54,486 bases of DNA from Candidatus Chisholmbacteria bacterium (GCA_016176555.1 JACOWY010000006.1:1-54486); one strand, 5' to 3'; positions 19,133 to 36,304 are shown, numbered from the stretch's first letter. A program made the numbers and translations. The notes: generated from the sequence alone by a model not told the origin.

Positions 19133-20005
19133 ATGCGCTGGCGACATCTCCTCATAAGCCTAGGTATTTTCTCTGTCTCTTTCACTCCAGTATTTGCCGC
19201 AGACACGGATATTGTTATCAACGAAGTTCTGCCAAACCCCAGCGACGACTCCAGTGAGCAAAACGAATTTATTGAACTTTACAACAAAGGATCGGAGCAA
19301 GTTTCTTTAACCAACTGGACCCTTGCTGATCAAGTCAAAACATACACCATAGGAGAAATAACATTAGCGGCCGGTGGTTTTGCCAGTTTTAAAAAATCTG
19401 ACACGAGTATTGGTTTAAACAATGATGGTGACAGCATTGAGTTGAAAAATGCCGGCGGCAGCCTCATTGATTCGATGTCCTTCGGTAATAGCTCAAATTC
19501 AGAAGATAGATCTTGGTCTAGGTACCCCGACGGTACCGGGAGTTTTTTTGCTGATACAACTCCTACTGAGAATGGTGCAAATTCAGTCCCCCCTAGCCCT
19601 TCACCCACACCCACACCCACACCAACCCCATCTCCTTCTCCAACTCCCACCTCTACCCCCAAACCATCACCAACTCCAAAACCTACAACCTCCACCGCTT
19701 CAGCTAAAAAATCTCCCGAGCCCACCCTCGAGCCGGTAGCTTTCTTAGACACCGAGCCAGAGCAGAAAAACGTTCAGCTTGGGGAAACCTTGGGTGAATC
19801 CACCGCAGCCTCTCCCGCAGCTACCGTAGTCGCCGGTAACCAATTTAATCGCCGGACCATCGTCAGCTGGCTTCTCACTGGGTCGGGCCTCGTCTTTCTC
19901 ACCGCCGCGGGGTTTCCTCTTCTCCGCCGCCACTTGAAGGCTGGTAAAATAGACAGATGGCCAAATTCAAACTCTGGGGACCGAGTATCATCTGGGCAGT
20001 CTTAA
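19133..20005 (+). CDS. lamin-tail-domain (LTD) surface protein with Pro/Thr/Ser linker and C-terminal TM
   Basis: Signal peptide, then the LTD signature DIVINEVLPNPSDDSSEQNEFIELYNKGSEQVSLTNWTL. Linker PSPSPTPTPTPTPSPSPTPTSTPKPSPTPKP. TM segment IVSWLLTGSGLVFLTAAGF. Confidence 0.8.
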   Translation: MRWRHLLISLGIFSVSFTPVFAADTDIVINEVLPNPSDDSSEQNEFIELYNKGSEQVSLTNWTLADQVKTYTIGEITLAAGGFASFKKSDTSIGLNNDGDSIELKNAGGSLIDSMSFGNSSNSEDRSWSRYPDGTGSFFADTTPTENGANSVPPSPSPTPTPTPTPSPSPTPTSTPKPSPTPKPTTSTASAKKSPEPTLEPVAFLDTEPEQKNVQLGETLGESTAASPAATVVAGNQFNRRTIVSWLLTGSGLVFLTAAGFPLLRRHLKAGKIDRWPNSNSGDRVSSGQS

Positions 20006-21324: not shown

Positions 21325-21807
21325 ATGAATATCGGGGTCATCGTCGCTATCGCTATCGTCATCGTCACTGTGGTAGTCAATCGTAGTCTCCCTCAAGAGC
21401 CAGAAGATTCTCTGTCTCCCGAGCCCATCGTCTCTCCCTCACCTGAACCCTCCCCAGAGCCGTCATTAGAGCCCTCGCCCACCCCGGAGCCTTCATCCAC
21501 GACCACGCCAACCCCAACGCTTACTCCCACGTCCCTCGAAACCTTCCGCTATCCCGAAAGCAGCGTTGAAAGTCAGTCATCCACCTCGCTTGCTTTAAAA
21601 ACTTCTGCGTCCGCCCAGACTGTCACCCAATGGTACCAAGATAAAATTAAAAGTTTAGGTTACTCGACCACCGCTTTTGTCCGTACCTCCACCAATGACA
21701 ATGTGAATAACGAACTTGCCGCCGCGGGTGACGGGCAAAATATTCGCGTCACAATTCGTCAAGAAAACCCTTCGGCCTCAACCTCAATCACTGTCACCAA
21801 AGAGTAA
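21325..21807 (+). CDS. hypothetical TM-anchored protein with Pro/Glu/Ser-rich linker
   Basis: N-terminal TM segment IGVIVAIAIVIVTVVV, followed by (S/E)PEP repeats. Confidence 0.6.
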   Translation: MNIGVIVAIAIVIVTVVVNRSLPQEPEDSLSPEPIVSPSPEPSPEPSLEPSPTPEPSSTTTPTPTLTPTSLETFRYPESSVESQSSTSLALKTSASAQTVTQWYQDKIKSLGYSTTAFVRTSTNDNVNNELAAAGDGQNIRVTIRQENPSASTSITVTKE

Positions 21808-21836
21808 AGTTATCACATTCTCCCTCTCGTGAATTC

Positions 21837-21919
21837 TGTCATCCTGAGCGCTAGCGAAGGATCTCATCTGGATGCTGAACTAAAACTTATCCTGAATTCT
21901 TTTCAGGATTCAGCATGAC
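21837..21919. repeat. GTCATCCTGAG / CAGCATGAC repeat units
   Basis: tgtcatcctgagcgctagcgaaggatctcat and ctggatgctgaac..cctgaattcttttcaggattcagcatgac. Followed up to 22140 by further small GC hairpins (ccatgggctttagcccatgg, ccacgggcgttagcccgtgg). Confidence 0.8.
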
Positions 21920-22184
21920 GAAATGTGATTTATTCGAGCCTAGCTGAATACCATGGGCTTTAGCCCATGGATGAATGCCAGGCAGAACGAACTCCGAAAG
22001 CCCTGAGCTCGTCGAAGGGCTGAGGATACCACGGGCGTTAGCCCGTGGTTGTTCATTGTTTACACCCGAAGTATTGACAAAGAAACCAGGCAACAGTATA
22101 GTAAGCGCCAGCGAACTACGTCGGGTCCGATTCATCGGACCGTAGACATATTACCGTCACTTGCCCCAGAGATGGGGTTTTTGT

Positions 22185-22934
22185 ATGCACAGAAGAAATA
22201 AAGTCGCCATCGCCGCTCTCCAATTCCGCCTCGAAAATCTGAGTCCTACACTTAGCTCCCTATTTAATAATTCGATAGAATTTCATCGAAGATATAATTT
22301 CTTAAATTCTCTTAAGCCTCTTATCGCCCAAGTCAAAGCCCGCATCGCCGGCTTCCAAAATGGCAACTATCACTACCGTCGCAGCCAATCACTTCCCTGG
22401 ACGAAAATCATTGTCGGCCTTATTGCTCTCGTCGTCGTGGGTCTAGCTGGCAGAGCCCTGATTCGCACCGTGGCCTCCAAAACGCCCTCGAGCCCAAACA
22501 CCAATATTGCCGCTCCCTACAAAACCCTTGAGCTCAACCGCGAATTTAGTTACACAGTCAAAAATAGCGCCGGTGAAGATACGGATATGAAGATTCATTT
22601 TAAACTCGAAAAACTAGAGCTGGCCAAAGAAATTGTTGCCAAGGGTCAACGGGCTACCGCTATTTCCGGTAGATCATTTTTACTCCTCACCATCAAGCTC
22701 ACCAACAACGAGGAGGTCGGCATTGAAATCGACACTCGTGATTACGTCCGCCTCAGCGTCGATGGCAGTGAAGAAAAGTTGGCCGCCGATATTCATAACG
22801 ACCCAGTGGAAGTCCAACCCCTCTCCACCAAAACCACCCGCATTGGTTTCCCCGTCAACGACACCATCAAAAAAGTCACCCTCTACATCGGCGAGATAAA
22901 AGGCGAAAAAGAGGCAATAGCAATCGACCTGTAG
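22185..22934 (+). CDS. hypothetical single-TM protein with DUF4352-like C-terminal beta domain
   Basis: ATG at 22185. TM segment IIVGLIALVVVGLAG. The C-terminal pattern ..GRSFLLLTIKLTNNEEVGIEIDTRDYVRL.. resembles DUF4352. Confidence 0.5.
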   Translation: MHRRNKVAIAALQFRLENLSPTLSSLFNNSIEFHRRYNFLNSLKPLIAQVKARIAGFQNGNYHYRRSQSLPWTKIIVGLIALVVVGLAGRALIRTVASKTPSSPNTNIAAPYKTLELNREFSYTVKNSAGEDTDMKIHFKLEKLELAKEIVAKGQRATAISGRSFLLLTIKLTNNEEVGIEIDTRDYVRLSVDGSEEKLAADIHNDPVEVQPLSTKTTRIGFPVNDTIKKVTLYIGEIKGEKEAIAIDL

Positions 22935-23123
22935 ATTATAGCAAGAGGTCCTTTAAAACTTTAAATAAAGCGCTACCTCGCCTGATCCGGCAACTGCCGG
23001 AGAAGGGTAGAGATTTCGAGCTTGCGAGAAACCTCGGCCGAGTGAAACGAGGCGTAGAGATAATTAACAAATGACCCATAGATTAATAAAATATTCATTA
23101 CTTAGTAAACCTATAGATACAGC

Positions 23124-23153
23124 TTGACAACAAGATAAACTACTCTGTATAGT
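23124..23153 (+). promoter_or_regulatory. putative sigma70-type promoter upstream of the yezD-like gene
   Basis: TTGACA (23124-23129), 18-nt spacer, TATAGT (23148-23153). Confidence 0.45.
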
Positions 23154-23210
23154 GCTTATCGAATCCGGAAGTGCAGAGAGAAATAAGAACTTGAGTCAAG
23201 CCTATGAGCC

Positions 23211-23399
23211 ATGATGCCATCAACCATCGTTACCAACAAACTTATCAAGGAAATTGAACAAGCCTTTCAAAGTGTTGGCGACTATGGTAGTGTCGAGATC
23301 TACATCCAAGCCAGCCGCGTGACCCAGATCACCAGCCGCAAGATTCGCAAAACCATGCATCCCGTCTACGGAAAAAACCGCTACTTAGCCAATAAGTGA
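23211..23399 (+). CDS. YezD-like small protein (DUF2292)
   Basis: 62 aa. IEQAFQSVGDYGSVEIYIQASRVTQITSRKIRK matches the DUF2292 pattern (..YGSvti.iqdGkvvqie..ekir). Confidence 0.6.
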   Translation: MMPSTIVTNKLIKEIEQAFQSVGDYGSVEIYIQASRVTQITSRKIRKTMHPVYGKNRYLANK

Positions 23400-23607
23400 A
23401 TATAAGAAAATATTAAAATCAGAAACTCGAGCACGCTGTGCCTGCCTCGCCGGCGGGCGGGCGCGCAGAGTTTCTCCATAATCGAGTAAGCACTGCGAAC
23501 TAGATTATCGGAAGTTTCGCCATAGGCGAAACGACGCACATTTCTTTTTGCCGTAACTTTTTCTTTCCCAAAGAAAAAGTACGAGCACTATTAACCGACC
23601 GCAACCG

Positions 23608-23653
23608 GAGGTTCTTAGAAAAAGATACGTCTTTTTCAAGGAACCTCTTTTTT
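23608..23653 (+). terminator. rho-independent terminator-like hairpin
   Basis: gaggttc..aaaaaga-tacg-tcttttt..gaacctc followed by tttttt. Confidence 0.55.
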
Positions 23654-23754
23654 GTTGCCAAAACCAGTTTGCTTGCAACGTGTTTGCTTGCAAACTATAC
23701 GTTGCCCGCGAATTTTATTTGCGAGGTCCTAAGAAAGGGGGTGAAAACAAATTC

Positions 23755-25062
23755 ATGACTAAATTTCAAAAGAAAATCGTAGGTGCTCTTGCTGGTGCTT
23801 CCATTTTGGTAAGCACCCTAACTCCGGCAGTTTTGGCTGCATCTTACGAAATCTCCGGCAACGGCCGCGATTCGACGAGTTTAATCGAGACTGATCTCGA
23901 AAGAAAAGTCGACGTCCAGCAAGACAACGACGCCGACGTTAAAAACGACGTCACCGTCTACACCAATACCGGCAACAACAAAGCCAACGATAATATTGGT
24001 GGTAACGTCTCGATAGACACCGGCAACACCGACGTTGGAGTGCAAATCTCCAACAACCTCAACACCAACTTTGCCGAAGTCGATAACTGTGGCGGTTGTG
24101 CCTTTGACGGCGAATTCAAAATTGCCAACAATGGCCGAGATTCGGACAACACCATCGAATTCGATGCCGAATCCAAAGTCGAAGTTGACCAAGACAACGA
24201 CGCCAAGGTTAAAAACTACGTTGACGTCACCGCTAAGACTGGCGATAACGACGCCAACGATAACAACGGTGGCTCTGTCGAAATCGACACCGGCAATGTC
24301 AAAGTCAATCCAGTTGCCATCTGGAACACCCTCAACGCTAACTTTGCTAGGGTTTCAAATGGCGGCGGAGATGGTGAACTTTCCGCCCGAATTGTCGGTA
24401 ACCTGAGAAAAAGCGCCAACTTGATTGATCTCGATTTCGAATCTAAAGTCGACGTCCAGCAAGACAACGACGCCGACGTCGCCAACGACGTAGACGTCTA
24501 TGGCAACTCCGGTAACAACGACGCCAACGACAACCACGGCTCTGTTGAAATCGACACTGGCAACGTTGAAATCGGCGTGCTGGTCGATACCGCCGCTAAT
24601 TTCAACTTAGCTGACGTCGAAGACTGCTGTCTTTTAGACCTTGACGCCAAAATCGGCGAAAACGGTCGCGATTCTGACAACACCATCGAACTCGACCTCG
24701 AGGACAAACTCGAAGTTGACCAAGACAACGACCTCGACTGTGACGGTGGTCACAAGAAAAGAGGCGGTTGGGGAGAGTGGGGTGAGTGGTGGAAGAAAGA
24801 TAAAGGCGGCAAATGTGCTGACGTTGATCTCACCGCTAAAACCGGTGACAACGACGCCAACGACAACGGCGCTGGTGGTGGCGATCCCTCGATCGACACT
24901 GGTGACGCCGACGTGGCCGTAGAAGTCTCAAACTCTGGTAACGTCAATGAGTTTGGTGACGGAGATTTTGACCTCCCTGGTGGAGGTACCTCAGTAGATA
25001 TCGATCTTGACTTCGGCGGACTCATGGAGCTCCTCGAAGAGCTGCTCGATCTATTGAGCTAG
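23755..25062 (+). CDS. secreted protein of four Asn/Asp-rich ~88-aa modules (module protein 1); no anchor, acidic C-terminal helix
   Basis: RBS aaggggg 12 nt upstream. Signal peptide MTKFQKKIVGALAGASILVSTLTPAVLA. Four repeats of the pattern ..NGRDS.N.I....K(V/L)(D/E)V.QDNDA.V.N.V.V....TG(N/D)NDANDN.GG.V.IDTGN..V......N.NfA.V... Ends in GGLMELLEELLDLLS. Confidence 0.82.
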   Translation: MTKFQKKIVGALAGASILVSTLTPAVLAASYEISGNGRDSTSLIETDLERKVDVQQDNDADVKNDVTVYTNTGNNKANDNIGGNVSIDTGNTDVGVQISNNLNTNFAEVDNCGGCAFDGEFKIANNGRDSDNTIEFDAESKVEVDQDNDAKVKNYVDVTAKTGDNDANDNNGGSVEIDTGNVKVNPVAIWNTLNANFARVSNGGGDGELSARIVGNLRKSANLIDLDFESKVDVQQDNDADVANDVDVYGNSGNNDANDNHGSVEIDTGNVEIGVLVDTAANFNLADVEDCCLLDLDAKIGENGRDSDNTIELDLEDKLEVDQDNDLDCDGGHKKRGGWGEWGEWWKKDKGGKCADVDLTAKTGDNDANDNGAGGGDPSIDTGDADVAVEVSNSGNVNEFGDGDFDLPGGGTSVDIDLDFGGLMELLEELLDLLS

Positions 25063-25224
25063 AAGCTTATATGGTGCGGTGGGAGGCACGGACTTGTCTC
25101 AAGTACCGAGCCCCCACCCGCCATGAAGCCATAACACATTTCGCAAGAAACAGCGGCCGAGCTAAAGCGAGGCGTAGCTATAGACTTGTAATTAAAAGCT
25201 AGCGAGTCACTGCCCACCAAGCTA

Positions 25225-27256
25225 TTGATGAAAAATTTAACTAAAAAATTAGTCAGCCTAATTACTAGTTTCATGCTGGTGATGACCTCAGTGGGCCCAG
25301 TGATTAATCCTGGGCTGGTATACGCCGTGCCCGCTCGACCGGATACGCCGGAAGAGCCAGATCAACCCGATCTCCCCGACGAGCCCGAGCTTCCCAGTCA
25401 GCCCCGACAGCCGGGCGATCCTACCCCCACCCCCCAGCCAAACGCAACCTCCCAAACTACTTCCACCGATACCACTAATTCTTCTTCCCCACCCCCTGTC
25501 ACCACTACCAGCACCGGCGGCACGACTGAAGGCGATGGCCAAGGCGATACCGCCATCACCACCGGCACTGCCACCGCCACCGGCACTATTGACACCACTG
25601 CCAACACCAACCTCGGCACCACCGGAGGTTCTGGCACCGGCTCAGGCCTTTCCGCCTCCAACATCAACAATGGCCAAAACTCCACCAACACCAATACTAT
25701 CGATAACACCAGCACCTCCTCGCTCGATCAAGATAATTCTGCCAAGGTCACCAACACCGCCGGCTTAAGCGCCGTCTCCGGTCGTCGAATTCAACGTTGT
25801 CGATGATCACGTCGGTGATATCATCCTTGACTTTGCCAATCCTTGCGCCACCGGCGGCTGCATCGCCGGCACTCCCTTAAACCTCTCCAACACCGGCAAC
25901 GGTCAAAACTCCACTAACACCAACGACGTCACTACCGACTTGACCTCCGCTACCTTCCAAAACAACGACGCCACTATTGAAAACAACCTCATCTTAGATT
26001 CTAACTCCGGTTACAACGTGGCCAAAGACAACCTTGGGGGCGACGTGGCCATTGTGAGTGGCGACGCCAATACTTCTGCCAACGTCGTCAACATGGCCAA
26101 CAACAACTTTGCCGGCAATGTCTTAGTCGGCGTGGTCAACATTTTTGGCGACCTCATTGGCGACATCATCCTTCCCGAGCAAGAAGGCAGCGGTGGAGGC
26201 TCCGGCACCTACGCTGCCAATGTGGCTAATGGGGCTGATTCACAAAACTTCAATAACATCGATCAGTCCACGCTGGATGCCATCACTCAGAACAATACTG
26301 CTACCATAGATAACAACCTGAATTTAGCCGCTACCACGGGCGGCAACTCTGCCAAAGACAACATTGGCGGCGGCGGCAACTCGATCATTACCGGTGATGC
26401 CAACGTCGTCGCTCAAGTCTTAAACATCGCCAACACCAACATCGTCGGCGGCTCCTGGTGGGTAGTTTTGGTCAACGAAGCCGGCAACTGGATCGGCCAC
26501 ATCGTGGGCGGGGGAGAAGGCGCCAACTACGCCGGCTCCGCGGGCACAGAGTTTCTGGTCAACCCCGATGGCTCCATTACCGCCTCAAATGGTGAAAACC
26601 TCGCTGGTTCGACCAATACCAATAACCTCACCACTAACACGACCAATACCACCACTCAAACCAACACCGCCACCATTGTCAACAATCTCGATCTTTCTGC
26701 CAACACTGGTGGTAACAAAGCCAAAGACAACGGCGGCGGCAATACCTCCATTGTCACCGGCGACGCCAACATCGTGGCCAACGTCGTCAACTTCCTCAAC
26801 AACAACTTTGTGGGGGGCCGTGTCTACCTCACCGTCATCAACGTCTTTGGATCTTGGCTAGGCGACTTCGTCGGCCCAGGCCAAACACAGGATACAGCTT
26901 CAAATAATTCCCAGACTCTCGCTCTCGGTGGCACAGAAAACAGCGGCAGCTCAAGTGGCAGCCACAACTCTGGAACTTCAAGCCAAAGCAACTCAGCTAA
27001 CACCCAAGTCCAAGCTGCGCTCGCCTCCCAACCTGTCACCTCACCGGCTCAAGTGCTCGGCAATAAAGTCGGCCAATTCCTTTCCTTCCAAGAGGAAAAC
27101 CCTGAAGACCCGGCGCCCACCGTCCAAGCTGCCAGCTCTGCGGCCAAAAAAGTCATCAAAGTCAACTTAGCCATCGTCATTCCCTTACTGCTCGCCTATT
27201 TCGCTATTCGCTATCACAAACAACTTGCTGCCCTTCTGCCCGAGAAGAGGAAGTAA
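25225..27256 (+). pseudogene. module protein 2: signal peptide, Pro-rich and Thr/Gly-rich spacers, four variant Asn-rich modules, Ser/Thr stalk, C-terminal TM. Reading frame broken at ~25769-25806.
   Basis: ORF 25225-25806 stops inside a module. The +1 frame is open from 25769 and continues the module consensus into ORF 25940-27256. About 35-40 aa of the module are missing at the junction. C-terminal LAIVIPLLLAYFAIRY followed by a basic tail. Confidence 0.7.
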
Positions 27257-27260
27257 GTTA

Positions 27261-28379
27261 GTGTTCAAAAAAATTGTTTCCTTTGTCACTGTCCTCACCC
27301 TGGCGCTTGATCTCGCCGCCCTCCCCGTACTGGCCACGACCGTTGAGATCAGTGGCAATGGGGCCGAATCACAGAGTGTAGCCACCGTTACCCAATCTCA
27401 GCAAAGTTCCATCTCTCAATCAAACGAGGGAGATGTCAATAACAACGTCAATATTGACGCCAACACCGGCAATAACACCGCCTCGGACAACACTGGCGAT
27501 ACGAGTATCACCACTGGCGACATCCACACCAATACTGCCATCACCAATGATCTCAACCAATCCCAGGCTTCAGCCGAGTGTTGCCCTCAAGGAGCCACGA
27601 CACTCATCATCAAAGACAACGGTGCTAACTCCCAAAACACCATTACCGCCACTACCCATACCTCAGCCGAGGGCATTATCAATCAAACCGCTACGATCAA
27701 TAACACCGTCCAAGGTAATGCCAACACCGGCTACAACACCGCCAACGATAATCATGGCACTGTGAGTATCACCACCGGCAACATCTTTATCCACGAAAAA
27801 ATCGCCAATAAACACGTCAATCAAGCCATCATGACCCTGCCTCAGGATGCAGGCCCCAATGTTTCCGCCCGCATCTCAGACAACGGCCAGAACACCACCA
27901 ATACCATCACCCATAACTATGTCTCCCTCGTCAACGCCGTGGTCAACAACGTGGCAGAGATTACCAACAAAAGCCATTGGTCAGCCAACACTGGCGGCAA
28001 CGACGCTAATGACAACTTTGGTCATGTCTCCATCGACACCGGCGATATCTTAGTCTGGATCGACATTCAAAACGACGTCAACTATTCCCAAGTCGAAGTC
28101 GGCTGCTGTGAGGCCAAACCTTCACCCACCCCCACTCCTCCTCCTGGCCCCGTGCCTTCACCTCCCCCCGGTCGTGGAGGCAACGGCGGCGGCGGCGATG
28201 GAGATGGTGGCAATGGCGCAGCTGCAGCCGGTGGCAACGGCGGCGGCCAGATTTTGCCCGTCACCGGTAACAACCTGTTGCTGACCTTAACCTTTATCAA
28301 CCTCTTGCTGCTTACCTTCGGCCTCTACCTCAAGACGCCCCCTAACCGAGAGCTCAAACTCACCTTCTCCTTCGCCTAG
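27261..28379 (+). CDS. module protein 3: three Asn-rich modules, Pro-rich and Gly-rich stalk, LPXTG cell-wall sorting signal
   Basis: GTG at 27261 with RBS gaggaag. Signal peptide ..LDLAALPVLA. LPVTG at 28254-28268, followed by a hydrophobic stretch and KTPPNRELK. Confidence 0.85.
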   Translation: MFKKIVSFVTVLTLALDLAALPVLATTVEISGNGAESQSVATVTQSQQSSISQSNEGDVNNNVNIDANTGNNTASDNTGDTSITTGDIHTNTAITNDLNQSQASAECCPQGATTLIIKDNGANSQNTITATTHTSAEGIINQTATINNTVQGNANTGYNTANDNHGTVSITTGNIFIHEKIANKHVNQAIMTLPQDAGPNVSARISDNGQNTTNTITHNYVSLVNAVVNNVAEITNKSHWSANTGGNDANDNFGHVSIDTGDILVWIDIQNDVNYSQVEVGCCEAKPSPTPTPPPGPVPSPPPGRGGNGGGGDGDGGNGAAAAGGNGGGQILPVTGNNLLLTLTFINLLLLTFGLYLKTPPNRELKLTFSFA

Positions 28380-28399
28380 CGAAAATCTTTAAAGTTATA

Positions 28400-28430
28400 A
28401 AGACCGGGTCTTCGTACAAGACCCGGTCTT
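28400..28430. repeat. perfect 13-bp-stem hairpin of the RGMCCGGKYCTT..AAGRMCCGGKCTTGAAG family
   Basis: aagaccgggtctt-cgtac-aagacccggtctt followed by gaag. Related copies at 28474-28502, 29170-29200 and inside rarA at 43223-43262. Confidence 0.85.
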
Positions 28431-28473
28431 GAAGACAAACAGTTGGAGGAAAAACCACTTTAATCAAAGTAAG

Positions 28474-28502
28474 AGGCCGGGTCTTTTCACTGACCCAGCC
28501 TT
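28474..28502. repeat. hairpin of the same family (imperfect)
   Basis: aggccgggtct-tttcact-gacccagcctt followed by gaag. Confidence 0.7.
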
Positions 28503-28562
28503 GAAGCCAACCGGTTGAAGTTCCAACAAGTTCAATTTCAGTTTTGCTACAATCCCTAAACC

Positions 28563-29129
28563 ATGACCAAATCCACCCCAACTCTCGCCAGCCGCCTTGG
28601 CACCGTCCTCATCGCCGCTTCCTTGCTCTTTTTCCTCATTCTCTATGGTCCTTTCCTTCTCTTATTCCTCCCCGGTAAAACAGTCGCCGTCCCCCAAAAT
28701 CAACCTGGCCTGACTATCACCATCCCCAAAATCAATGCCCAAGCCCCGATCATTAAAGATGTTGATCCTTGGAACGAAGCAGAATATCGCACCAGACTTA
28801 AAGAAGGCGTAGCCCACGCTAAAGGCTCGAGCCTTCCGGGCGAGGGGAGTACCACCTATCTCTTCGCCCACTCCTCCGATCTGCCTTGGAATCTCACCCG
28901 CTACAACACAGCCTTTTTTCGCTTAGGCGAACTCCAACCCGGCGACGCCATCATGGTCACCGATGATGTTCAAACCTTCACCTACCAAGTTACCGCCATC
29001 AAAGTCGTCCGCCCCGACGAAGTCAAATACCTCACCCAATTTCAGGATAAAGATCAGCTCATTCTCCAAACCTGCACCCCCATCGGCACCGCCCTCAAGC
29101 GCCTCCTCGTCTTCGCCGCACCTGCCTAA
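28563..29129 (+). CDS. sortase-family transpeptidase
   Basis: N-terminal TM. Catalytic His in TYLFAHS, Cys in LILQTCTP and a downstream Arg in LKRLLVF. Confidence 0.88.
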   Translation: MTKSTPTLASRLGTVLIAASLLFFLILYGPFLLLFLPGKTVAVPQNQPGLTITIPKINAQAPIIKDVDPWNEAEYRTRLKEGVAHAKGSSLPGEGSTTYLFAHSSDLPWNLTRYNTAFFRLGELQPGDAIMVTDDVQTFTYQVTAIKVVRPDEVKYLTQFQDKDQLILQTCTPIGTALKRLLVFAAPA

Positions 29130-29169
29130 CTTAAACCTACAACTTTCGCGTTGACATATCTTGCGGTAA

Positions 29170-29200
29170 AAGGCCGGGTCTTTTGGCCAGACCCGGCCTT
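29170..29200. repeat. perfect 12-bp-stem hairpin of the same family, in the convergent intergenic gap
   Basis: aaggccgggtct-tttggcc-agacccggcctt followed by gaag. Confidence 0.85.
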
Positions 29201-29271
29201 GAAGCTCATCGGAAATACCTCATCGACACACATAAACGCTTCAAACCGATGTTGAAATTAGAAACAGCAAC

Positions 29272-30261
29272 CTAAAGCTCACAACCACCCACATCTTCGC
29301 CATCCACGCATTTGTCGACGCCAGAATTGCCTCTCAGCCGATCAGTATCGTCACCTCCATCCAAGAGGTCATTACCGCTGTCCCCACCCAGTCCGTCATT
29401 ACCACCCTCTCCGAAAATTTTGTCATTACCTGAATTACCATTCATTCGGTCGTTGCCCCCGCCGCCGTGCATCACGTCGTTCCCATTACCGCCACTCAGT
29501 CTATCCTCGCCGGGGCCACCAATACCGACGTCATTCCCCGAATCCAACTCAATCCGATCGTCACCCTCACCCCCCACTACACAATCATGCCCCGAAGCGG
29601 CAATAATCCGGTCGTTGCCGCCTTTGCCCAAAATGAATTCATGTGCCGACGTCCCCCGGAGAATATCATCGCCCTCAGTGCCCTCGATTACTTCGGTGAT
29701 AAACCCAGCGATCGGAAAGCACTCGTCGGGCAAATCAAGTTCACCCTCTTCACTGCCAAATACAAGATCAAAAATCGTCTCCGCTCCCTGCCACTGATTA
29801 TCATCTTCTCCGGGCACAAAACAGACCACAAAATCGTAGTTTACCGTTTCGGTACTGCCCACAGTCGACAAAAACACCCCATCAGGCGCGTCGCTGGCCG
29901 TAAAAAAACTGGCCAAAGTGCCATTAAATAACTCCGTGGCATCCTGCGAAATAGTCAGGTTTAGCCTCTCGGCAAAGCCCAAGGGATTTTCCGTTTCGTT
30001 ATCACTTTTTACCGCCACAGCCACACTATTTGGCCCAGTGTTTTCCGCTACCACCGTGTGCACGTCGGTGCAATCGCCCGGCAGCATCCCCGTCACTTCA
30101 AAAATCGGATCTCCGAGCGGTACGCCCAAATAGGTAATAATCAAATCTCCCACCGCCTGTACATTCGCCCCCAAAACGTTTTTCCCTTGCCACCACTCCC
30201 AGCCAAAAAAGCTCACCACAATGATCGAAGGGATAATGAGTTTGAGCAGACGTTTCTTCAT
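29272..30261 (-). CDS. TasA/camelysin-like domain fused to RTX-type calcium-binding repeats
   Basis: Start at MKKRLLKLIIPSIIVVSFF; the 18 upstream codons in the track lie in a repeat element. TasA-like MLPGDCTDVHTVVAENTG and NQWQGAETIFDLVFG. C-terminal GGxGxD nonapeptides (GGNGNDVMHGGGGNDRMNGNSGNDKIFGEGGNDGLGGDSGNDLL). Confidence 0.78.
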   Translation of the reverse strand: MKKRLLKLIIPSIIVVSFFGWEWWQGKNVLGANVQAVGDLIITYLGVPLGDPIFEVTGMLPGDCTDVHTVVAENTGPNSVAVAVKSDNETENPLGFAERLNLTISQDATELFNGTLASFFTASDAPDGVFLSTVGSTETVNYDFVVCFVPGEDDNQWQGAETIFDLVFGSEEGELDLPDECFPIAGFITEVIEGTEGDDILRGTSAHEFILGKGGNDRIIAASGHDCVVGGEGDDRIELDSGNDVGIGGPGEDRLSGGNGNDVMHGGGGNDRMNGNSGNDKIFGEGGNDGLGGDSGNDLLDGGDDTDRLRGNSGVDKCVDGEDVGGCEL

Positions 30262-30273
30262 AATCTCAAGATT

Positions 30274-30344
30274 TGTCATTCTGAAGCTGAGCTTGTCGAA
30301 GCTGAAGAATCTCATTAGATCCTTCGCGTACGCTCAGGATGACA
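30274..30344. repeat. full-length GTCATTCTGA..TCAGGATGACA element
   Basis: tgtcattctgaagctgagcttgtcgaagctgaagaatctcattagatccttcgcgtacgctcaggatgaca. Confidence 0.85.
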
Positions 30345-30372
30345 AAGTGATTATTGAAATAATTCATAATTT

Positions 30373-30780
30373 TCACAATCCTGGCGTTGGTGTTGTTCGC
30401 ACTACAAAATCACTAGGTGCAAAATTAGTTCCCGTCGCCGAATCAAGGCCGGTGGGATCCCGCTCAATCGATTCATCTGTACTTGGCTCCAAGCCAGTCA
30501 CCCCATTCCACTCAATCGTGTCTATAACCACATCGTTAGCATCCAAAAGCCTCAATAAATTGGTATTCAAATTAACTTGAGCCCCAAGATTCACTGTCAC
30601 CGCACCATTCACGTTGCCGTTTAAGCACTGCTGAATCACTCCATTACTCTTCACCAAGATGGCAAACGCCCCAGTATTGAGCGAGGTATTTGAGTTTGCT
30701 ATCGCCAACGTGTTAGTCCCGTCGCTGAGTTTAAAGTTTTGCAAGTCCACTGGTGCCCCGCTGCCATTACACAATTCCAA
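30373..30780 (-). CDS. lamin-tail-domain protein fragment; its expected signal peptide lies upstream in another frame
   Basis: QFLELCNGSGAPVDLQNFKLSDG.. and IEWNG..SIERDP..TPG are LTD signatures. The ORF opens only at a TTG just after stop codons. Confidence 0.65.
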   Translation of the reverse strand: MELCNGSGAPVDLQNFKLSDGTNTLAIANSNTSLNTGAFAILVKSNGVIQQCLNGNVNGAVTVNLGAQVNLNTNLLRLLDANDVVIDTIEWNGVTGLEPSTDESIERDPTGLDSATGTNFAPSDFVVRTTPTPGL

Positions 30781-31543
30781 AAATTGACCACATCACTAAA
30801 GTCTGCGCTATGTCATCGAAAGAAGAAGCCGCCCCAAACACATTGGCCAGGCTCGTTTCCGAGTCAAGAAAAAATGACCCGCTCACCGCCATGGTCACAA
30901 ACAACGCCCCCAAAAACGGCACGACTGTAGTGGCCAACGGTAAACCCCTTGGCTCTTTCTTAGGCAGAAGATTAATTTTGAAAGCCACGCTAACGTCTCG
31001 CCTGCGCCTCAGCCACAGCCTTAGTCGCCCCAATCCACGCTTAATTTCTCTGCCTAAATTCTTCAGTTCCTCATAAATAATAATCGTCGCCGGCACTATC
31101 ACCAGAAAAATAAACCCTTGTGGTTTCTTAGCAAAATCCACCGCATAACCCACATAGGGGACGCTCAACGTCACCGCGCCGATAATGTCATCCTTGTGCA
31201 CCAAGCCTTGATCCACCGACTTGTTGGCATCACCTTTGGTTTGGTAGAGAATCTCCTGGTCCTCGCCATCTTGCGCCAAATCATTCACTCGGTGCGTCAC
31301 CGGCAAATCTTTACCAGTGATAAAAGTAATAATGTCGCCCTGAGCATAGCCAAAGGGTTTAGGCTTCACAAACACCACGCTACCCAAAGGGATCGCCGGC
31401 TCCATGGAGCCCGACATGACCACATAGGGTTTAATCGGCACTGAGTAGCCCAAATGCCCGGCCACAAACAGTGCTCCTCCCGCCGCCATCACGGCAAAAA
31501 GGACTACCTGAAAACTAATTGAGAGAATCTTTCGCATCTTCAT
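30767..31543 (-). CDS. sipW: SipW/archaeal-type signal peptidase I (S26). The ORF continues without a stop into a second, SipW-class signal-peptide-like segment.
   Basis: MKMRKILSISFQVVLFAV.., catalytic-Ser box MSGSMEPAIPLGSVVFV, VTHRV, C-terminal TM FIFLVIVPATIIIY. Then RRRRD..LATTVVPFLGALFVTMAVSGSFFLDSETSLANVFGAASS. Confidence 0.85.
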   Translation of the reverse strand: MKMRKILSISFQVVLFAVMAAGGALFVAGHLGYSVPIKPYVVMSGSMEPAIPLGSVVFVKPKPFGYAQGDIITFITGKDLPVTHRVNDLAQDGEDQEILYQTKGDANKSVDQGLVHKDDIIGAVTLSVPYVGYAVDFAKKPQGFIFLVIVPATIIIYEELKNLGREIKRGLGRLRLWLRRRRDVSVAFKINLLPKKEPRGLPLATTVVPFLGALFVTMAVSGSFFLDSETSLANVFGAASSFDDIAQTLVMWSIFGIV

Positions 31544-31577
31544 TATCGCATTGACAGGGTTCAACCCTATCAACCTT

Positions 31578-31695
31578 TGTCATCCTGAATTTGTCCCCGT
31601 CATCCTGATCCTGAGCTTGCCGAAGGAGAAGGATCTCATGAGAGAACACGTAACCGGGGTGAGATCCTTCGGTCGCCAGCTCTCTCAGGATGACA
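31578..31695. repeat. GTCATCCTGA..TCAGGATGACA element (two left ends)
   Basis: tgtcatcctgaatttgtccccgtcatcctgatcctgagcttgccgaaggagaaggatctcat..gagatccttcggtcgccagctctctcaggatgaca. Confidence 0.85.
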
Positions 31696-31817
31696 AGTAA
31701 CCTGTTTAGCTAGTACGTAGAATTTCGTAGACCAGAACCAACAGTATTTTCTTGTCTAGTCACTAGTGCCTAGTGCCTAGTCACTATTTCTATTAGCTCT
31801 GGCCTACCCTCTTAAGG

Positions 31818-31865
31818 CTCTACGGCCAAAAGAGAGTAGTTCTCTACGGCCAAAAGAGAGTAGTT
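31818..31865. repeat. perfect 24-bp tandem duplication
   Basis: ctctacggccaaaagagagtagtt occurs twice, directly downstream of the TasA-like gene stop. Confidence 0.9.
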
Positions 31866-31878
31866 AAATTCTCGTTTA

Positions 31879-32766
31879 TTAGTCAAGTGGTTCGCAAACG
31901 AAATCAGGGTTATTTCTCGATTGCTCAACTCTAAACGAGAGATCAGCTGTTAAAGAATCAGACTGGGTGTCATTACCCATGACGTCACCGTCACAAGAAA
32001 TATCACCACCGGAAATTCCAATTCCTCCGGCACACCATGCTAGACCGATGAAGTAGTCGTTGCTACCGATAAGTGGGCCACCGCCTAATGGATCAAACAC
32101 GTTACCATTACTATCAGCTAATGGGTAAGTAACACCATTTAAGACATCGCTAGCTGGACCGCTTACGTTACTGAAAAGGGGAAACTCGTCATCGGCTGTG
32201 TTGGGCGTTTGATCATTTCCATCCGGCTCAAAGACATTATCACCGTCGTCTTTCCAGGAAAAAAATTCAAGATTTTGAGCCAGTTCACCCTCATCGTCAC
32301 CTCCCGTTGTATCACCAGCTTCCTCTTCAGGTTCTGTAAGTCCGTTGTCATCATTTTCGAGAGGACTGATATCCATACAAGCCCATGCATCGTTGTCAAA
32401 TACATGCAAGCTAATGGTATTCTCCCCAGCATCTCCCGGTTTAACATCAGAGAATGAGAAGAACTTTTCCTCAAAAAGATCTGTGAGATCCCAACTACCA
32501 TCACAAGGTTCACCAATTAAATCCGGTCTAGTTGATGTATTAGGTACATCCTCCACCCATTCGAAAACGCCAGGATCAACTTCAGTACAGGTTAGACCCG
32601 CGTAGTGAGCGGTACTATCAATTTGAAGATCCAATTCTCCAGCTTGAAAAGTATTATCAAAAGACGTCTCAGTGTCGCTAAAGAAGGCTCCGCTGGCGGC
32701 AAAAGCCGCACCAGCCACCAAAGCCACAGTCATCACACTCAAAAGAATTCGTTTCATTTTTCTCAC
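31879..32766 (-). CDS. TasA/camelysin (M73)-family secreted protein with SipW-cognate signal peptide
   Basis: RBS aaggggggtga. MRKMKRILLSVMTVALVAGAAFAASGAFFSDTETSFDNTFQAGELDL matches the SipW-class signal (FSDTETS..NTF.AG.LDL). Also FSDVKPGDAGENTISL and a late ..DLSFRVEQSRNN. Confidence 0.85.
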   Translation of the reverse strand: MRKMKRILLSVMTVALVAGAAFAASGAFFSDTETSFDNTFQAGELDLQIDSTAHYAGLTCTEVDPGVFEWVEDVPNTSTRPDLIGEPCDGSWDLTDLFEEKFFSFSDVKPGDAGENTISLHVFDNDAWACMDISPLENDDNGLTEPEEEAGDTTGGDDEGELAQNLEFFSWKDDGDNVFEPDGNDQTPNTADDEFPLFSNVSGPASDVLNGVTYPLADSNGNVFDPLGGGPLIGSNDYFIGLAWCAGGIGISGGDISCDGDVMGNDTQSDSLTADLSFRVEQSRNNPDFVCEPLD

Positions 32767-33381: not shown

Positions 33382-33717
33382 TTAAATCGCCGGCGGTGTT
33401 TGGTTCACCCGATTGGTGATGGTAATGGTGACGTCAATTTTACCTGTCTTGATTTTCACTTTGCCATCATTGTCGTCGGCACTATTGCCGCCAGTATAGA
33501 GAGTGAGCCTCAGGTCGTTATCGATGTCGGCATCGTTGTCCACATCCACTTTTACTTTCTTTTCCACTTTAAGTTCACACTTATTGTGAGAGCTGCGGCC
33601 ATTATCTTTGATCACACAGCGCAGTCGGGGTGCGGCCAAAGCTGGTCCGACGGCAAGTAAAGTTGCCATCGCCCCACCGATGATACCCACGCCAATTTTG
33701 GTTGCGAGTTTTTGCAT
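33382..33717 (-). CDS. single-module paralogue (111 aa) of the Asn/Asp-rich repeat family
   Basis: Strong RBS aggaggtga. Signal peptide MQKLATKIGVGIIGGAMATLLAVGPALA. One module: IKDNGRSSHNKCELKVEKKVKVDVDNDADIDNDLRLTLYTGGNSADDNDGKVKIKTGKIDVTITITNRVNQ. Confidence 0.78.
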   Translation of the reverse strand: MQKLATKIGVGIIGGAMATLLAVGPALAAPRLRCVIKDNGRSSHNKCELKVEKKVKVDVDNDADIDNDLRLTLYTGGNSADDNDGKVKIKTGKIDVTITITNRVNQTPPAI

Positions 33718-35153: not shown

Positions 35154-35255
35154 AATATATAAACAGATTTTGTTACGGCTTTTTCAAAGAGTACAATCAA
35201 TGGTGTAATTTCAGCCCCATCTATGGTTATAGCACCCAGTGGCCAGAAAAAAGCC

Positions 35256-36304
35256 ATGACCACCATCTTTTTTATTGTCTTTTTAGACATTTTAGGCTTT
35301 AGCCTCATCTTGCCCCTCTTGCCCTTTATCGCCGAAAGCTTTGGCGGCAATCCTACCACCATCGGTTTTTTAGTCGCCAGCTACTCCTTTTTTCAATTTA
35401 TCGCCGCCCCGATTCTAGGCACTCTCTCCGATCGCTTCGGCCGTAGAAAATTACTCATCTTCTCGCAAATCGGCTCAGCTTTGGGGTTTATCATCTTAGG
35501 CCTAGCCCACACCTTACCTCTCCTGTTTCTTTCCCGCATTATTGACGGCATTACCGGCGGCAATATTTCCATCGCCCACGCCTACATTGCCGATATCACT
35601 ACCCCCAAAAATCGCGCCAAAGGCATGGGCATGCTCAGTGCTGCGTTTGGTGCTGGATTTATCATCGGCCCTGCTGTCGGAGGATTCCTGTCCCAAATCA
35701 GCTTTTCGTTGCCCGCCTATGTCGCTGCTGCTATGGCTCTCATCACCGCTCTCGCTACGCAATTATTCTTAAAAGAAACCGTGGCCTCGACCCAAAACAC
35801 CGTCAAACATTTTTCCGGCCTCAAAGCCAGCGTACCTTTAACTTTGGCCCACAACAAATCGCCTGGGTATTTGCCTTTGTGGGCCTGACCCAAATTGTTG
35901 TCCAACTCAAGGTTTTGCCCTTTTTAGTTGATCGACTAGGGGAATGGCGCCTGCTCAAAGTCTCCATATTTATATTTGCGGTAAGTTTTTTTGCCCTGCT
36001 TGTGTCCTTCCATCCACTCCTCTTGCTCATCTCTGTTGGCCTGATCGCTCCGGGCCAAGGCCTCGCCACTCCTGCCATTCAAGCCCTCGCCTCGGAAACA
36101 GTCAGCCCCAAAGAATACGGCGAAACCTTAGGGATTATGCAATCAGCGGGCAGCCTCGGCCGCATCGCCGGCCCCGTCATCGGTGGCCTCCTCTTTACCG
36201 GGTTTTCTAAATCGGCCCCATACATCTTTGTTGCCACGCTACTCACGCTGACTGTGTTATTTCTATTAAGTCAACACCAAGAGCGGCGGCAGCTCGTTCG
36301 TTGA
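35256..36304 (+). pseudogene. MFS (TetA/DHA1-like) transporter, frame broken between TM6 and TM8
   Basis: N-terminal half ends at 35888 (..SDRFGRRKLL.. motif A). The C-terminal half continues in another frame (NFGPQQIAWVFAFVGLTQIVVQ..DRLGEWRLL). A TM7-sized segment appears to be missing. Confidence 0.72.

Follow-up and report, generated by a model that had tools for sequence, protein, structure and literature searches.

Giant-coil beta-solenoid modules predicted in a conserved operon of surface proteins from Candidatus Chisholmbacteria and related bacteria

A contig of the uncultivated, ultra-small Candidatus Chisholmbacteria bacterium (GCA_016176555.1, JACOWY010000006.1:1-54486; its 54,486 nucleotides are hereafter called the window) carries, at positions 23755-28379, three genes on the same strand that encode secreted Asn/Asp-rich repeat proteins. 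These proteins, named here P1, P2, and P3, are made of tandem copies of a module of about 88 residues. A fourth protein of 111 residues, P4, is encoded at some distance and carries the module once. P1 and P4 match HYS86_00980 and HYS86_01025, respectively, with 100% identity, the former being from a metagenome-assembled genome (MAG) of Candidatus Chisholmbacteria. All four proteins begin with a signal peptide, which ends a few residues ahead of the first module and, as read from the sequence, is of the ordinary A-x-A type. Together with the surface anchors described below, these signal peptides agree with an initial annotation of the DNA, which had seen surface proteins here.

The modules were counted with jackhmmer, seeded with one module and run against all stop-to-stop open reading frames (ORFs) of the six-frame translation of the window. 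Eleven good and two partial copies were found, with domain E-values ranging from 1e-36 to 1e-9, and the twelve copies counted earlier by eye were therefore essentially right. Four copies are in P1, with independent domain E-values of 1e-35, 3e-32, and 3e-30 for the first three, the fourth being split by an insertion into two matches (2e-7 plus 7e-12). Three are in P3 (2e-26, 6e-23, and 2e-28) and one is in P4 (2e-28). P2 had been credited with four variant copies; it does bear the module, but the profile search distributes it as three intact copies in the downstream part of the gene (about 1e-21 each) and two partial copies in the upstream part (2e-9 and 4e-9). No other ORF of the window contains the module. 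The positions of all features are given in Table 1.

Table 1. Module-bearing genes of the window, their parts, and the surrounding genes.
Feature	Position	Strand	Description
P1	23755-25062	+	435 aa, secreted; signal peptide aa 1-28, four modules, acidic amphipathic C-terminal tail
P1 module 1	23851-24099	+	CGGC bulge at its end (24088-24099)
P1 module 2	24121-24369	+	Found by jackhmmer
P1 module 3	24391-24627	+	Vicinal CC after it (24622-24633)
P1 module 4	24652-24948	+	Divergent; insertion 24739-24816 inside the long strand
P1 C-terminal tail	24964-25059	+	Acidic/aromatic stretch, then amphipathic LLxxLLxxLL helix
P2 upstream fragment	25225-25806	+	Signal peptide, Pro/Thr-rich region, degenerate module (25450-25632), truncated module (25666-25785)
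P2 downstream fragment	25781-27256	+	Other frame; intact modules 25892-26113, 26225-26446, 26594-26812
P2 hydrophobic extensions	26114-26176, 26447-26509, 26813-26875	+	About 21 aa each, one behind each intact module
P2 C-terminal part		+	Ser/Thr/Gln-rich linker, then transmembrane segment 27161-27214 with basic end
P3	27261-28379	+	Signal peptide, three modules, linker, LPVTG, transmembrane segment and basic tail
P3 modules	27348-27584, 27609-27836, 27873-28109	+	CC pairs behind modules 1 and 3
P3 linker	28116-28253	+	Pro/Gly-rich; precedes LPVTG (28254-28268)
P4	33382-33717	-	111 aa, secreted; single module 33400-33612, no sequence element behind the module
up160	21325-21807	+	N-terminal transmembrane segment, Pro/Ser/Thr-rich linker, small domain; often accompanies the operon
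up257	22161-22934	+	Membrane-anchored, no family assigned; always upstream of the DUF2292/P1 pair; start codon uncertain
DUF2292-like gene	23211-23399	+	62 aa, immediately upstream of P1; position kept in nearly all related loci
Sortase	28563-29129	+	Directly downstream of P3; position conserved in related loci
RTX calcium-binding repeat protein	29272-30315	-	HemolysinCabind
Lamin-tail-domain protein	30373-30780	-
Signal peptidase	30767-31573	-	SipW-type (archaeal-type)
TasA/camelysin-like protein	31879-32766	-	SipW-type signal peptide

In P1, the insertion that interrupts module 4 comprises 26 residues, is flanked by Cys and rich in Trp, Gly, Lys, and Glu (CDGGHKKRGGWGEWGEWWKKDKGGKC), and is predicted to be disordered. 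It is a disulfide-closed (Cys...Cys) loop. In homologues of P1, the sequence of the loop differs but its character, two Cys enclosing Trp and basic residues, does not; one of them gives a weak match to the NCBIfam "amphi-Trp" model (E 0.008). This Trp/Lys/Gly-rich loop is a candidate binding element. The C-terminal tail of P1, in which a helix is predicted with low confidence at residues 420-433, is also kept in orthologues. For P3, a start at 27225 had been proposed; a likelier one lies 36 nt further on, at the GTG codon 27261, behind an AGGAAG ribosome-binding site.

P2, compared with its orthologues, is one gene that is broken in this assembly. The orthologues are unbroken ORFs of 700-790 aa; in the window, the reading frame changes at about 25781, and about 37 codons are missing from the stretch 25666-25840 (orthologue residues ~215-251, corresponding to columns 45-80 of the second module). 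The gene may truly have been turned into a pseudogene by deletion, or a repeat may have been collapsed during assembly. Elsewhere in the contig, the gene of a major facilitator superfamily (MFS) transporter appears to be split into overlapping ORFs of different frames (35223-35888 and 35879-36304); a second frame break of this kind suggests that the assembly may contain indel errors.

The module belongs to a large family. A search with a profile built from the 11 modules found here, as the initial annotation had proposed, retrieved 3,245 representatives (of clusters at 50% identity) at E <= 1e-3, 2,154 at E <= 1e-10, and 809 at E <= 1e-30. The prevailing architectures are proteins of about 400-440 aa with four modules and proteins of about 700-800 aa with five modules; rarer members carry up to 10 modules. 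All members whose organism can be read belong to the Candidate Phyla Radiation (CPR, or Patescibacteria), mostly to the Microgenomates; the lineages are Chisholm-, Gottesman-, Woese-, Levyi-, Roizman-, Curtiss-, and Woykebacteria, plus one Parcubacteria MAG. Full-length homologues of P1, 40-68% identical, occur in MAGs of each of the first seven. Some third-party annotation (TPA) assemblies are labelled "uncultured Gammaproteobacteria"; because they carry the same CPR-type locus, this label is regarded as a placeholder.

Genes in 20 related loci were located with the hidden Markov model of the module and with the neighbouring proteins of the window. The usual gene order is up160 (not always present), up257, a ~65-aa DUF2292-like gene, P1, P2, P3, and a sortase gene. 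P1, P2, and P3 follow each other in 15 of the 20 loci, and P2 is split in a 16th; the others end early or diverge. up257 and the DUF2292-like gene are each found upstream in 19 loci, and 14 loci have a sortase gene downstream, no more than 3 kb from the module genes. Module numbers are also conserved, with four in P1, four or five in P2, and mostly three in P3. Ahead of the DUF2292-like gene of the window, a near-consensus sigma-70-like promoter site (23124-23153; TTGACA, 18-nt spacer, TATAGT; 11/12 matches) suggests that the transcription unit begins there. Many related loci also encode, on the opposite strand just behind the sortase gene, a small secreted two-module protein of 160-236 aa without an anchor (for example L002, L006, L009, and L018); the window has instead the one-module P4, 5 kb away.

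The C-termini are as initially described: LPVTG and a transmembrane (TM) segment in P3, a TM segment in P2, an acidic amphipathic tail in P1, and nothing in the 111-aa protein. They had been taken for "choice-of-anchor behaviour", an interpretation that the related loci do not bear out. Indeed, each ending belongs to one of the three paralogues. P1 orthologues end with an acidic/aromatic stretch (FDFDF-like) followed by an amphipathic LLxxLLxxLL helix, P2 orthologues with an "INLAWLLLL"-type TM helix and basic residues, and P3 orthologues with LP[AVI]TG, a TM segment, and then "LRLRSGRSP", the LPxTG signal being present in 11 of them. Since each paralogue keeps its own ending, the differing anchors reflect fixed roles of three paralogues that are inherited together, not domain shuffling. 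Conserved order, module number, and C-termini, together with the sortase, point to a multi-component assembly.

In the window, P3 ends with LPVTG (28254-28268), then NNLLLTLTFINLLLLTFGLYL, then K..R. With a C-terminal LPxTG, a hydrophobic segment, a positive tail, and an adjoining sortase gene, P3 has the sequence features of an LPxTG sortase substrate. The sortase itself matches PF04203 (E 1.5e-27) and TIGR01076 (77 bits for a cut-off of 39.35). It reaches no curated class, the best one being class C with 81.6 bits vs. a cut-off of 160. Four P3 orthologues (in loci L001, L003, L010, and L019) are devoid of LPxTG and carry a conserved "VLGLS"-type sequence and a TM segment instead, which may be a variant sorting signal or a plain membrane anchor.

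As stated in the initial annotation, the module is unrecognised. The five module proteins scanned have no match at E <= 1 in Pfam-A or NCBIfam, the curated choice-of-anchor models of the latter included. Among 45 full-length homologues of P1, there is no consistent Pfam or NCBIfam match and none to a choice-of-anchor model. Profiles of 11 and 100 modules, searched against PDB sequences, retrieved nothing but a Takeout-like protein at E 0.38. No significant match to a described repeat family was obtained, and full-text literature searches brought up no account of the module family. HemolysinCabind (GGxGxD RTX repeats) matches the neighbour gene at 29272-30315 only, and the Peptidase_M73/TasA profile and SipW-type signal (TIGR04088) match that at 31879-32766 only, in neither case the module proteins. 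The proposed link to curlin does not hold at the level of homology, which is rejected on an hhalign probability of 0.3% between the module profile and Escherichia coli CsgA (UniProt P28307) and on the lack of any Curlin_rpt (PF07012) match in the module proteins or the 45 homologues. Curli and Fap secretion families have no match among the scanned products of the operon and its neighbours (21325-32766 and a few ORFs beyond). The family is new; its kind, the repeat-built cross-beta surface protein, is known already.

The profile of the collected modules agrees with the consensus of ~85-90 aa that had been read by eye. Asn29, Asn46, Asn74, Gly44, and Gly61 are conserved at 98-99%. The x-N-x-A-x-V-x-N alternation, also noticed earlier, is real and runs unbroken over 31 residues (columns 13-43). 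In this stretch, the conserved Asn/Gln/Ala/Val/Ile/Thr positions are charged in 0% of cases and have a mean of 2.7 bits, and the intervening positions are Asp/Glu/Lys/Arg in 40-55% of cases, with a mean of 1.1 bits; there is no parity break. Insertions and deletions are restricted to three places: the tip (columns 52-54), a bulge after column 79, and one site in the long strand of P1 module 4. The bulge holds Cys pairs in P1 and P3 and a ~21-residue hydrophobic, hairpin-like extension in P2. Cys pairs at module boundaries, a further claim of the initial annotation, are found at columns 82-84 in roughly 300 of the 1,346 collected modules, mostly co-occurring as pairs. A Cys at column 2 and one at column 15 occur together in 7 of 7 cases; Cys34 and Cys46 of P4 are among them, and these two columns are coupled. 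The linkers between modules have only 5-10 residues.

An AlphaFold2 model of P1, run with an alignment of 45 homologous sequences, has a mean predicted local distance difference test (pLDDT) score of 77 and a predicted template-modelling (pTM) score of 0.63. The modules reach pLDDT 85-90; confidence is low for the 26-residue insertion of module 4 and for the tail. Residues 29-300 are 76% strand, with one uninterrupted strand of 31-33 residues per module. The single-module P4, modelled with a 100-sequence module alignment, has a pLDDT of 45 and no secondary structure, as expected if strands pair between modules. The structure prediction suggested in the initial annotation thus gives the repetitive beta architecture for four modules but not for one. 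Foldseek found no match to the P1 model at E <= 1e-3 in PDB and BFVD (TM <= 0.11). The top PDB matches, none of them significant, are nearly all parallel beta-solenoids, beta-helices, and beta-rolls; CsgA, FapC, SufBD, Ag43, TibA, and pectate lyases are among the top matches. Solenoid-type matches that do not superpose suggest local parallel stacking within an unmatched overall shape.

Direct-coupling analysis was carried out on 1,286 unique modules (effective number, Meff, about 1,195) from 264 proteins and 20 loci. It yields one long antidiagonal (i+j = 104-106), which links columns 23-48 with columns 56-78 on the conserved face only, and a short arch between columns 2-5 and 15-17. On the antidiagonal, the couplings of each residue reach both j and j+2, a pattern that indicates two strands interdigitating face to face rather than a hydrogen-bonded hairpin. 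The pairs of the antidiagonal and of the arch are module-specific: their z is 6-11 inside a module and drops to about 0 from one module to the next. Between modules (958 consecutive pairs), 33 of the 40 strongest couplings join the same column and the antidiagonal is absent. These same-column couplings fit in-register stacking and argue against a meander of hairpins.

Several other folds were considered and rejected on the couplings. An N-terminal segment folded back on the long strand would call for an antidiagonal near i+j = 42-44, which is absent, and long hairpins arranged as a beta-meander would call for one between modules, likewise absent. If each module formed two coils of ~44 residues, a series of pairs at constant offset would be expected, and there is none. 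The same is true of curlin-type rungs of ~19-23 residues, as the couplings give a single arch over columns 23-78 and no pair series of constant separation. Finally, columns 7-10 and 50-53, which form the two turns at opposite ends of the predicted coil, covary strongly, charge swaps at columns 9 and 50 included. A lateral intermolecular contact was rejected as the origin of this signal, which is equally strong within and between modules; most simply, it is a signature of the protein or paralogue class, not of residues touching inside a coil.

Ladders in parallel stacks, such as beta-solenoids and amyloids, are typically marked by Asn and Gln that are buried and invariant. The coils of classical beta-solenoids have about 12-30 residues. 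The AlphaFold2 model of P1, the failure of the single module to fold, the couplings, and the alternation in the profile predict a repetitive stacked-beta architecture, solenoid or amyloid-like, as the initial annotation had supposed. The curlin-like periodicity that it had proposed as the stacking unit, a strand-loop-strand of ~22 residues, is replaced by the whole module of ~88 residues, with two long arms that are antiparallel and face each other. One module is thus predicted to be one flattened ~88-residue coil of a parallel beta-solenoid.

In such a coil, the ~31-residue strand (columns 13-43) would run outward from the G-N-G-x-D-S-x-N turn that closes the coil. The chain would turn at the tip, T-G-x-N-x-A-x-D-N-T-G-G-x-V-x-I-x-T-G, and run back as columns 61-80; past the short Cys-containing bulge, it would enter the following module one layer higher, as that module's columns 1-5. 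The arms would pack face to face via Ala, Val, Ile, and Asn/Gln, with Asp, Glu, Lys, and Thr at the outside positions, and the backbone hydrogen bonds would be formed between successive modules, not inside one module. Each protein would therefore comprise 3-5 cross-beta layers already stacked into one block, dry inside, where Ala, Val, Asn, and Gln lie, and polar outside, with P1 being acidic and P2 and P3 Thr/Asn/Ser-rich. The block would have the form of a plate about 31 residues long and 3-5 layers thick, with strands of ~100 Å. Because blocks of 3-5 layers would have open edges of ~31 residues and no N-terminal cap, association would be expected. P2 would be held at the membrane by its C-terminal helix and P3 would be linked covalently to the wall by the adjoining sortase via LPVTG. 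P1 may be held non-covalently, by edge-to-edge stacking on open block ends and/or via its amphipathic acidic tail, and the small module proteins may likewise add on by edge stacking. The paralogues, placed at three depths of the envelope, could together form a surface fibre or layer.

We consider it somewhat more probable than otherwise that P1-P3 and P4 are Sec-exported structural proteins of the cell surface whose giant-coil beta-solenoid modules form a fibre or layer; the function as fibre or layer is what we infer from the evidence above. Several points weigh against this reading. In-register stacking is deduced from secondary structure, couplings, and the failure of the single module. AlphaFold2 readily stacks tandem repeats, and common descent or gene conversion would also produce couplings between equal columns of different modules. 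The failure of P4 could stem from a heterologous alignment, because P4 has one close homologue only in a word-indexed search. The divergent last module of P1 and a possible helix cap argue against open-ended homopolymerisation of P1. Moreover, P2 is disrupted here, which points either to an assembly error or to an organism that lacks an intact system.

Other readings of the same data have to be weighed against this one. The modules could be independent beta domains (Ig-like, CnaB, or G5-E type), arranged as beads on a string in monomeric stalks that present an adhesive tip. Tandem modules, an LPxTG or TM anchor, and an adjoining sortase are typical of Gram-positive stalk adhesins; in addition, a single-module protein exists and Foldseek gives no significant solenoid match. 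However, the lone module is unfolded in AlphaFold2 and the four-module protein folded, the pTM of P1 implies a fixed geometry between modules, and the short linkers leave 5-10 residues between them. Furthermore, the couplings are found on one face of the arms only, the face bearing the near-invariant Asn/Gln, an arrangement unfavourable for an isolated two-stranded ribbon. We regard such stalks as unlikely. Equally unlikely, in our view, is the tiling of the cell by blocks as a two-dimensional paracrystalline sheet of the surface-layer (S-layer) type rather than as a fibre, tied down by P2 and P3. The shape of the predicted plates, long and thin with one ~31-residue strand per side, and the three co-conserved paralogues with complementary anchors would suit it. 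Cryo-electron microscopy of groundwater CPR cells by Luef and colleagues in 2015 reportedly showed a patterned surface layer, which counts for such a sheet; to our knowledge, no protein of this layer has been identified. The covariation of the two coil turns (columns 7-10 with 50-53) would also fit, but it is not module-specific, and its simplest reading is the paralogue-class signature already mentioned.

Alternatively, the flat faces themselves could be the functional part, with arrays of Asp in P1 or of Thr/Asn/Ser in P2 and P3 that bind cations, minerals, ice, or host polysaccharide. The outward positions are indeed charged in 40-55% of cases, mostly Asp, an RTX calcium-binding protein is encoded nearby in the window and in related loci, and ice-binding beta-helices appear among the Foldseek matches. 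Yet these matches are not significant, the module proteins contain no calcium-binding motif (no HemolysinCabind match), and the outward positions are poorly conserved compared with the inward ones (mean of 1.1 vs. 2.7 bits), so that we find this reading quite improbable. Finally, a strongly biased composition and overlapping ORFs in other frames could raise the suspicion of a compositional artefact, that is, a low-complexity Asn/Asp-rich sequence without defined structure or a spurious ORF. This is refuted by position-specific invariant residues across thousands of sequences, conserved synteny, a strong coupling pattern, and a confident AlphaFold2 model, and it deserves next to no credence.

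The stacked giant-coil reading can be compared with several known systems. In curli (CsgA/CsgB, 8c50), secreted imperfect repeats rich in Asn, Gln, Gly, and Ala form one cross-beta layer each, as predicted here, with buried Asn/Gln ladders and a major subunit that has cell-associated partners. CsgA is also the best, non-significant Foldseek match of P1 (E 6e-3; TM-score 0.05). In contrast, curli layers have 19-23 residues, vs. ~88 residues with ~31-residue strands here, about four times more; there is no sequence relationship with the module, and anchoring here is by sortase or TM helix. No export apparatus of the CsgG/E/F type is expected, because the host has no outer membrane. The Fap system, too, needs an outer-membrane channel. 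FapC of Pseudomonas (9u4u) resembles the module proteins by its few long imperfect repeats, each one cross-beta layer, and by an operon shared with its partners; among the Foldseek matches it ranks third, again without significance (E 0.08, TM 0.06), and it differs in repeat length and motif, with no sequence similarity. By analogy, the system seems closest in principle to the curli and Fap functional amyloids, and is a member of neither.

Superpleated beta-structure and beta-serpentine models of amyloids (Kajava and Steven) have long flat segments stacked in register with Asn/Gln ladders. In these amyloids, each layer is a separate chain, whereas 3-5 layers would here be covalently linked in one protein. 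With Gram-positive LPxTG substrates and sortase pili, the system shares the LPVTG, hydrophobic segment, and basic tail of P3 with a sortase gene adjoining, and, with pilus loci, the grouping of several paralogous structural proteins with a dedicated sortase in one operon. Unlike sortase pili, the module proteins have no Ig-like, CnaB, or SpaA domains, and the signal is found in one of the three paralogues. The sheath (SH) proteins of the archaea Methanothrix and Methanospirillum build a continuous cross-beta envelope from paralogous secreted proteins with add-on parts, and their core consists of two sheets of six antiparallel strands (PMC11576556). They would be functional analogues, as cross-beta envelopes made from paralogues; however, they are archaeal, have no tandem ~88-residue coil, and show no sequence relation to the module.

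CPR bacteria account for a large share of bacterial diversity and are mostly thought to be attached to other cells, and the composition of their surface is almost unknown. A large syntenic family with a dedicated sortase, outside curated libraries, is thus a tangible candidate for a principal structure of the envelope, or of attachment, in these bacteria. More specifically, the three paralogues and the small one- and two-module proteins might build the regular surface structure of Microgenomates-type CPR cells, a heteromeric, amyloid-like cross-beta fibre or sheet tethered by sortase and membrane and made from blocks of 3-5 covalently joined layers, each ~88 residues wide, in which the Trp/Lys-rich loop and the tail of P1 would be distal and possibly in contact with the host. 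This fuller picture is tentative, and we give it only a modest chance of being right. If true, the geometry of the beta-solenoid would have no precedent among solved structures. Coils of ~88 residues with ~100-Å strands would widen the range of cross-beta architectures, and the modules would be a natural example of covalently joined "amyloid layers".

Behind the operon, the window encodes the RTX, lamin-tail-domain (LTD), SipW-type signal peptidase, and TasA-like proteins listed in Table 1, which make up a second group of surface or matrix genes. Several related loci (L002, L004, L006, L016, and L018) have genes of these four kinds close to the operon as well. A second LTD protein of 290 aa (19133-20005; LTD E 1.2e-19) is encoded upstream of the operon.

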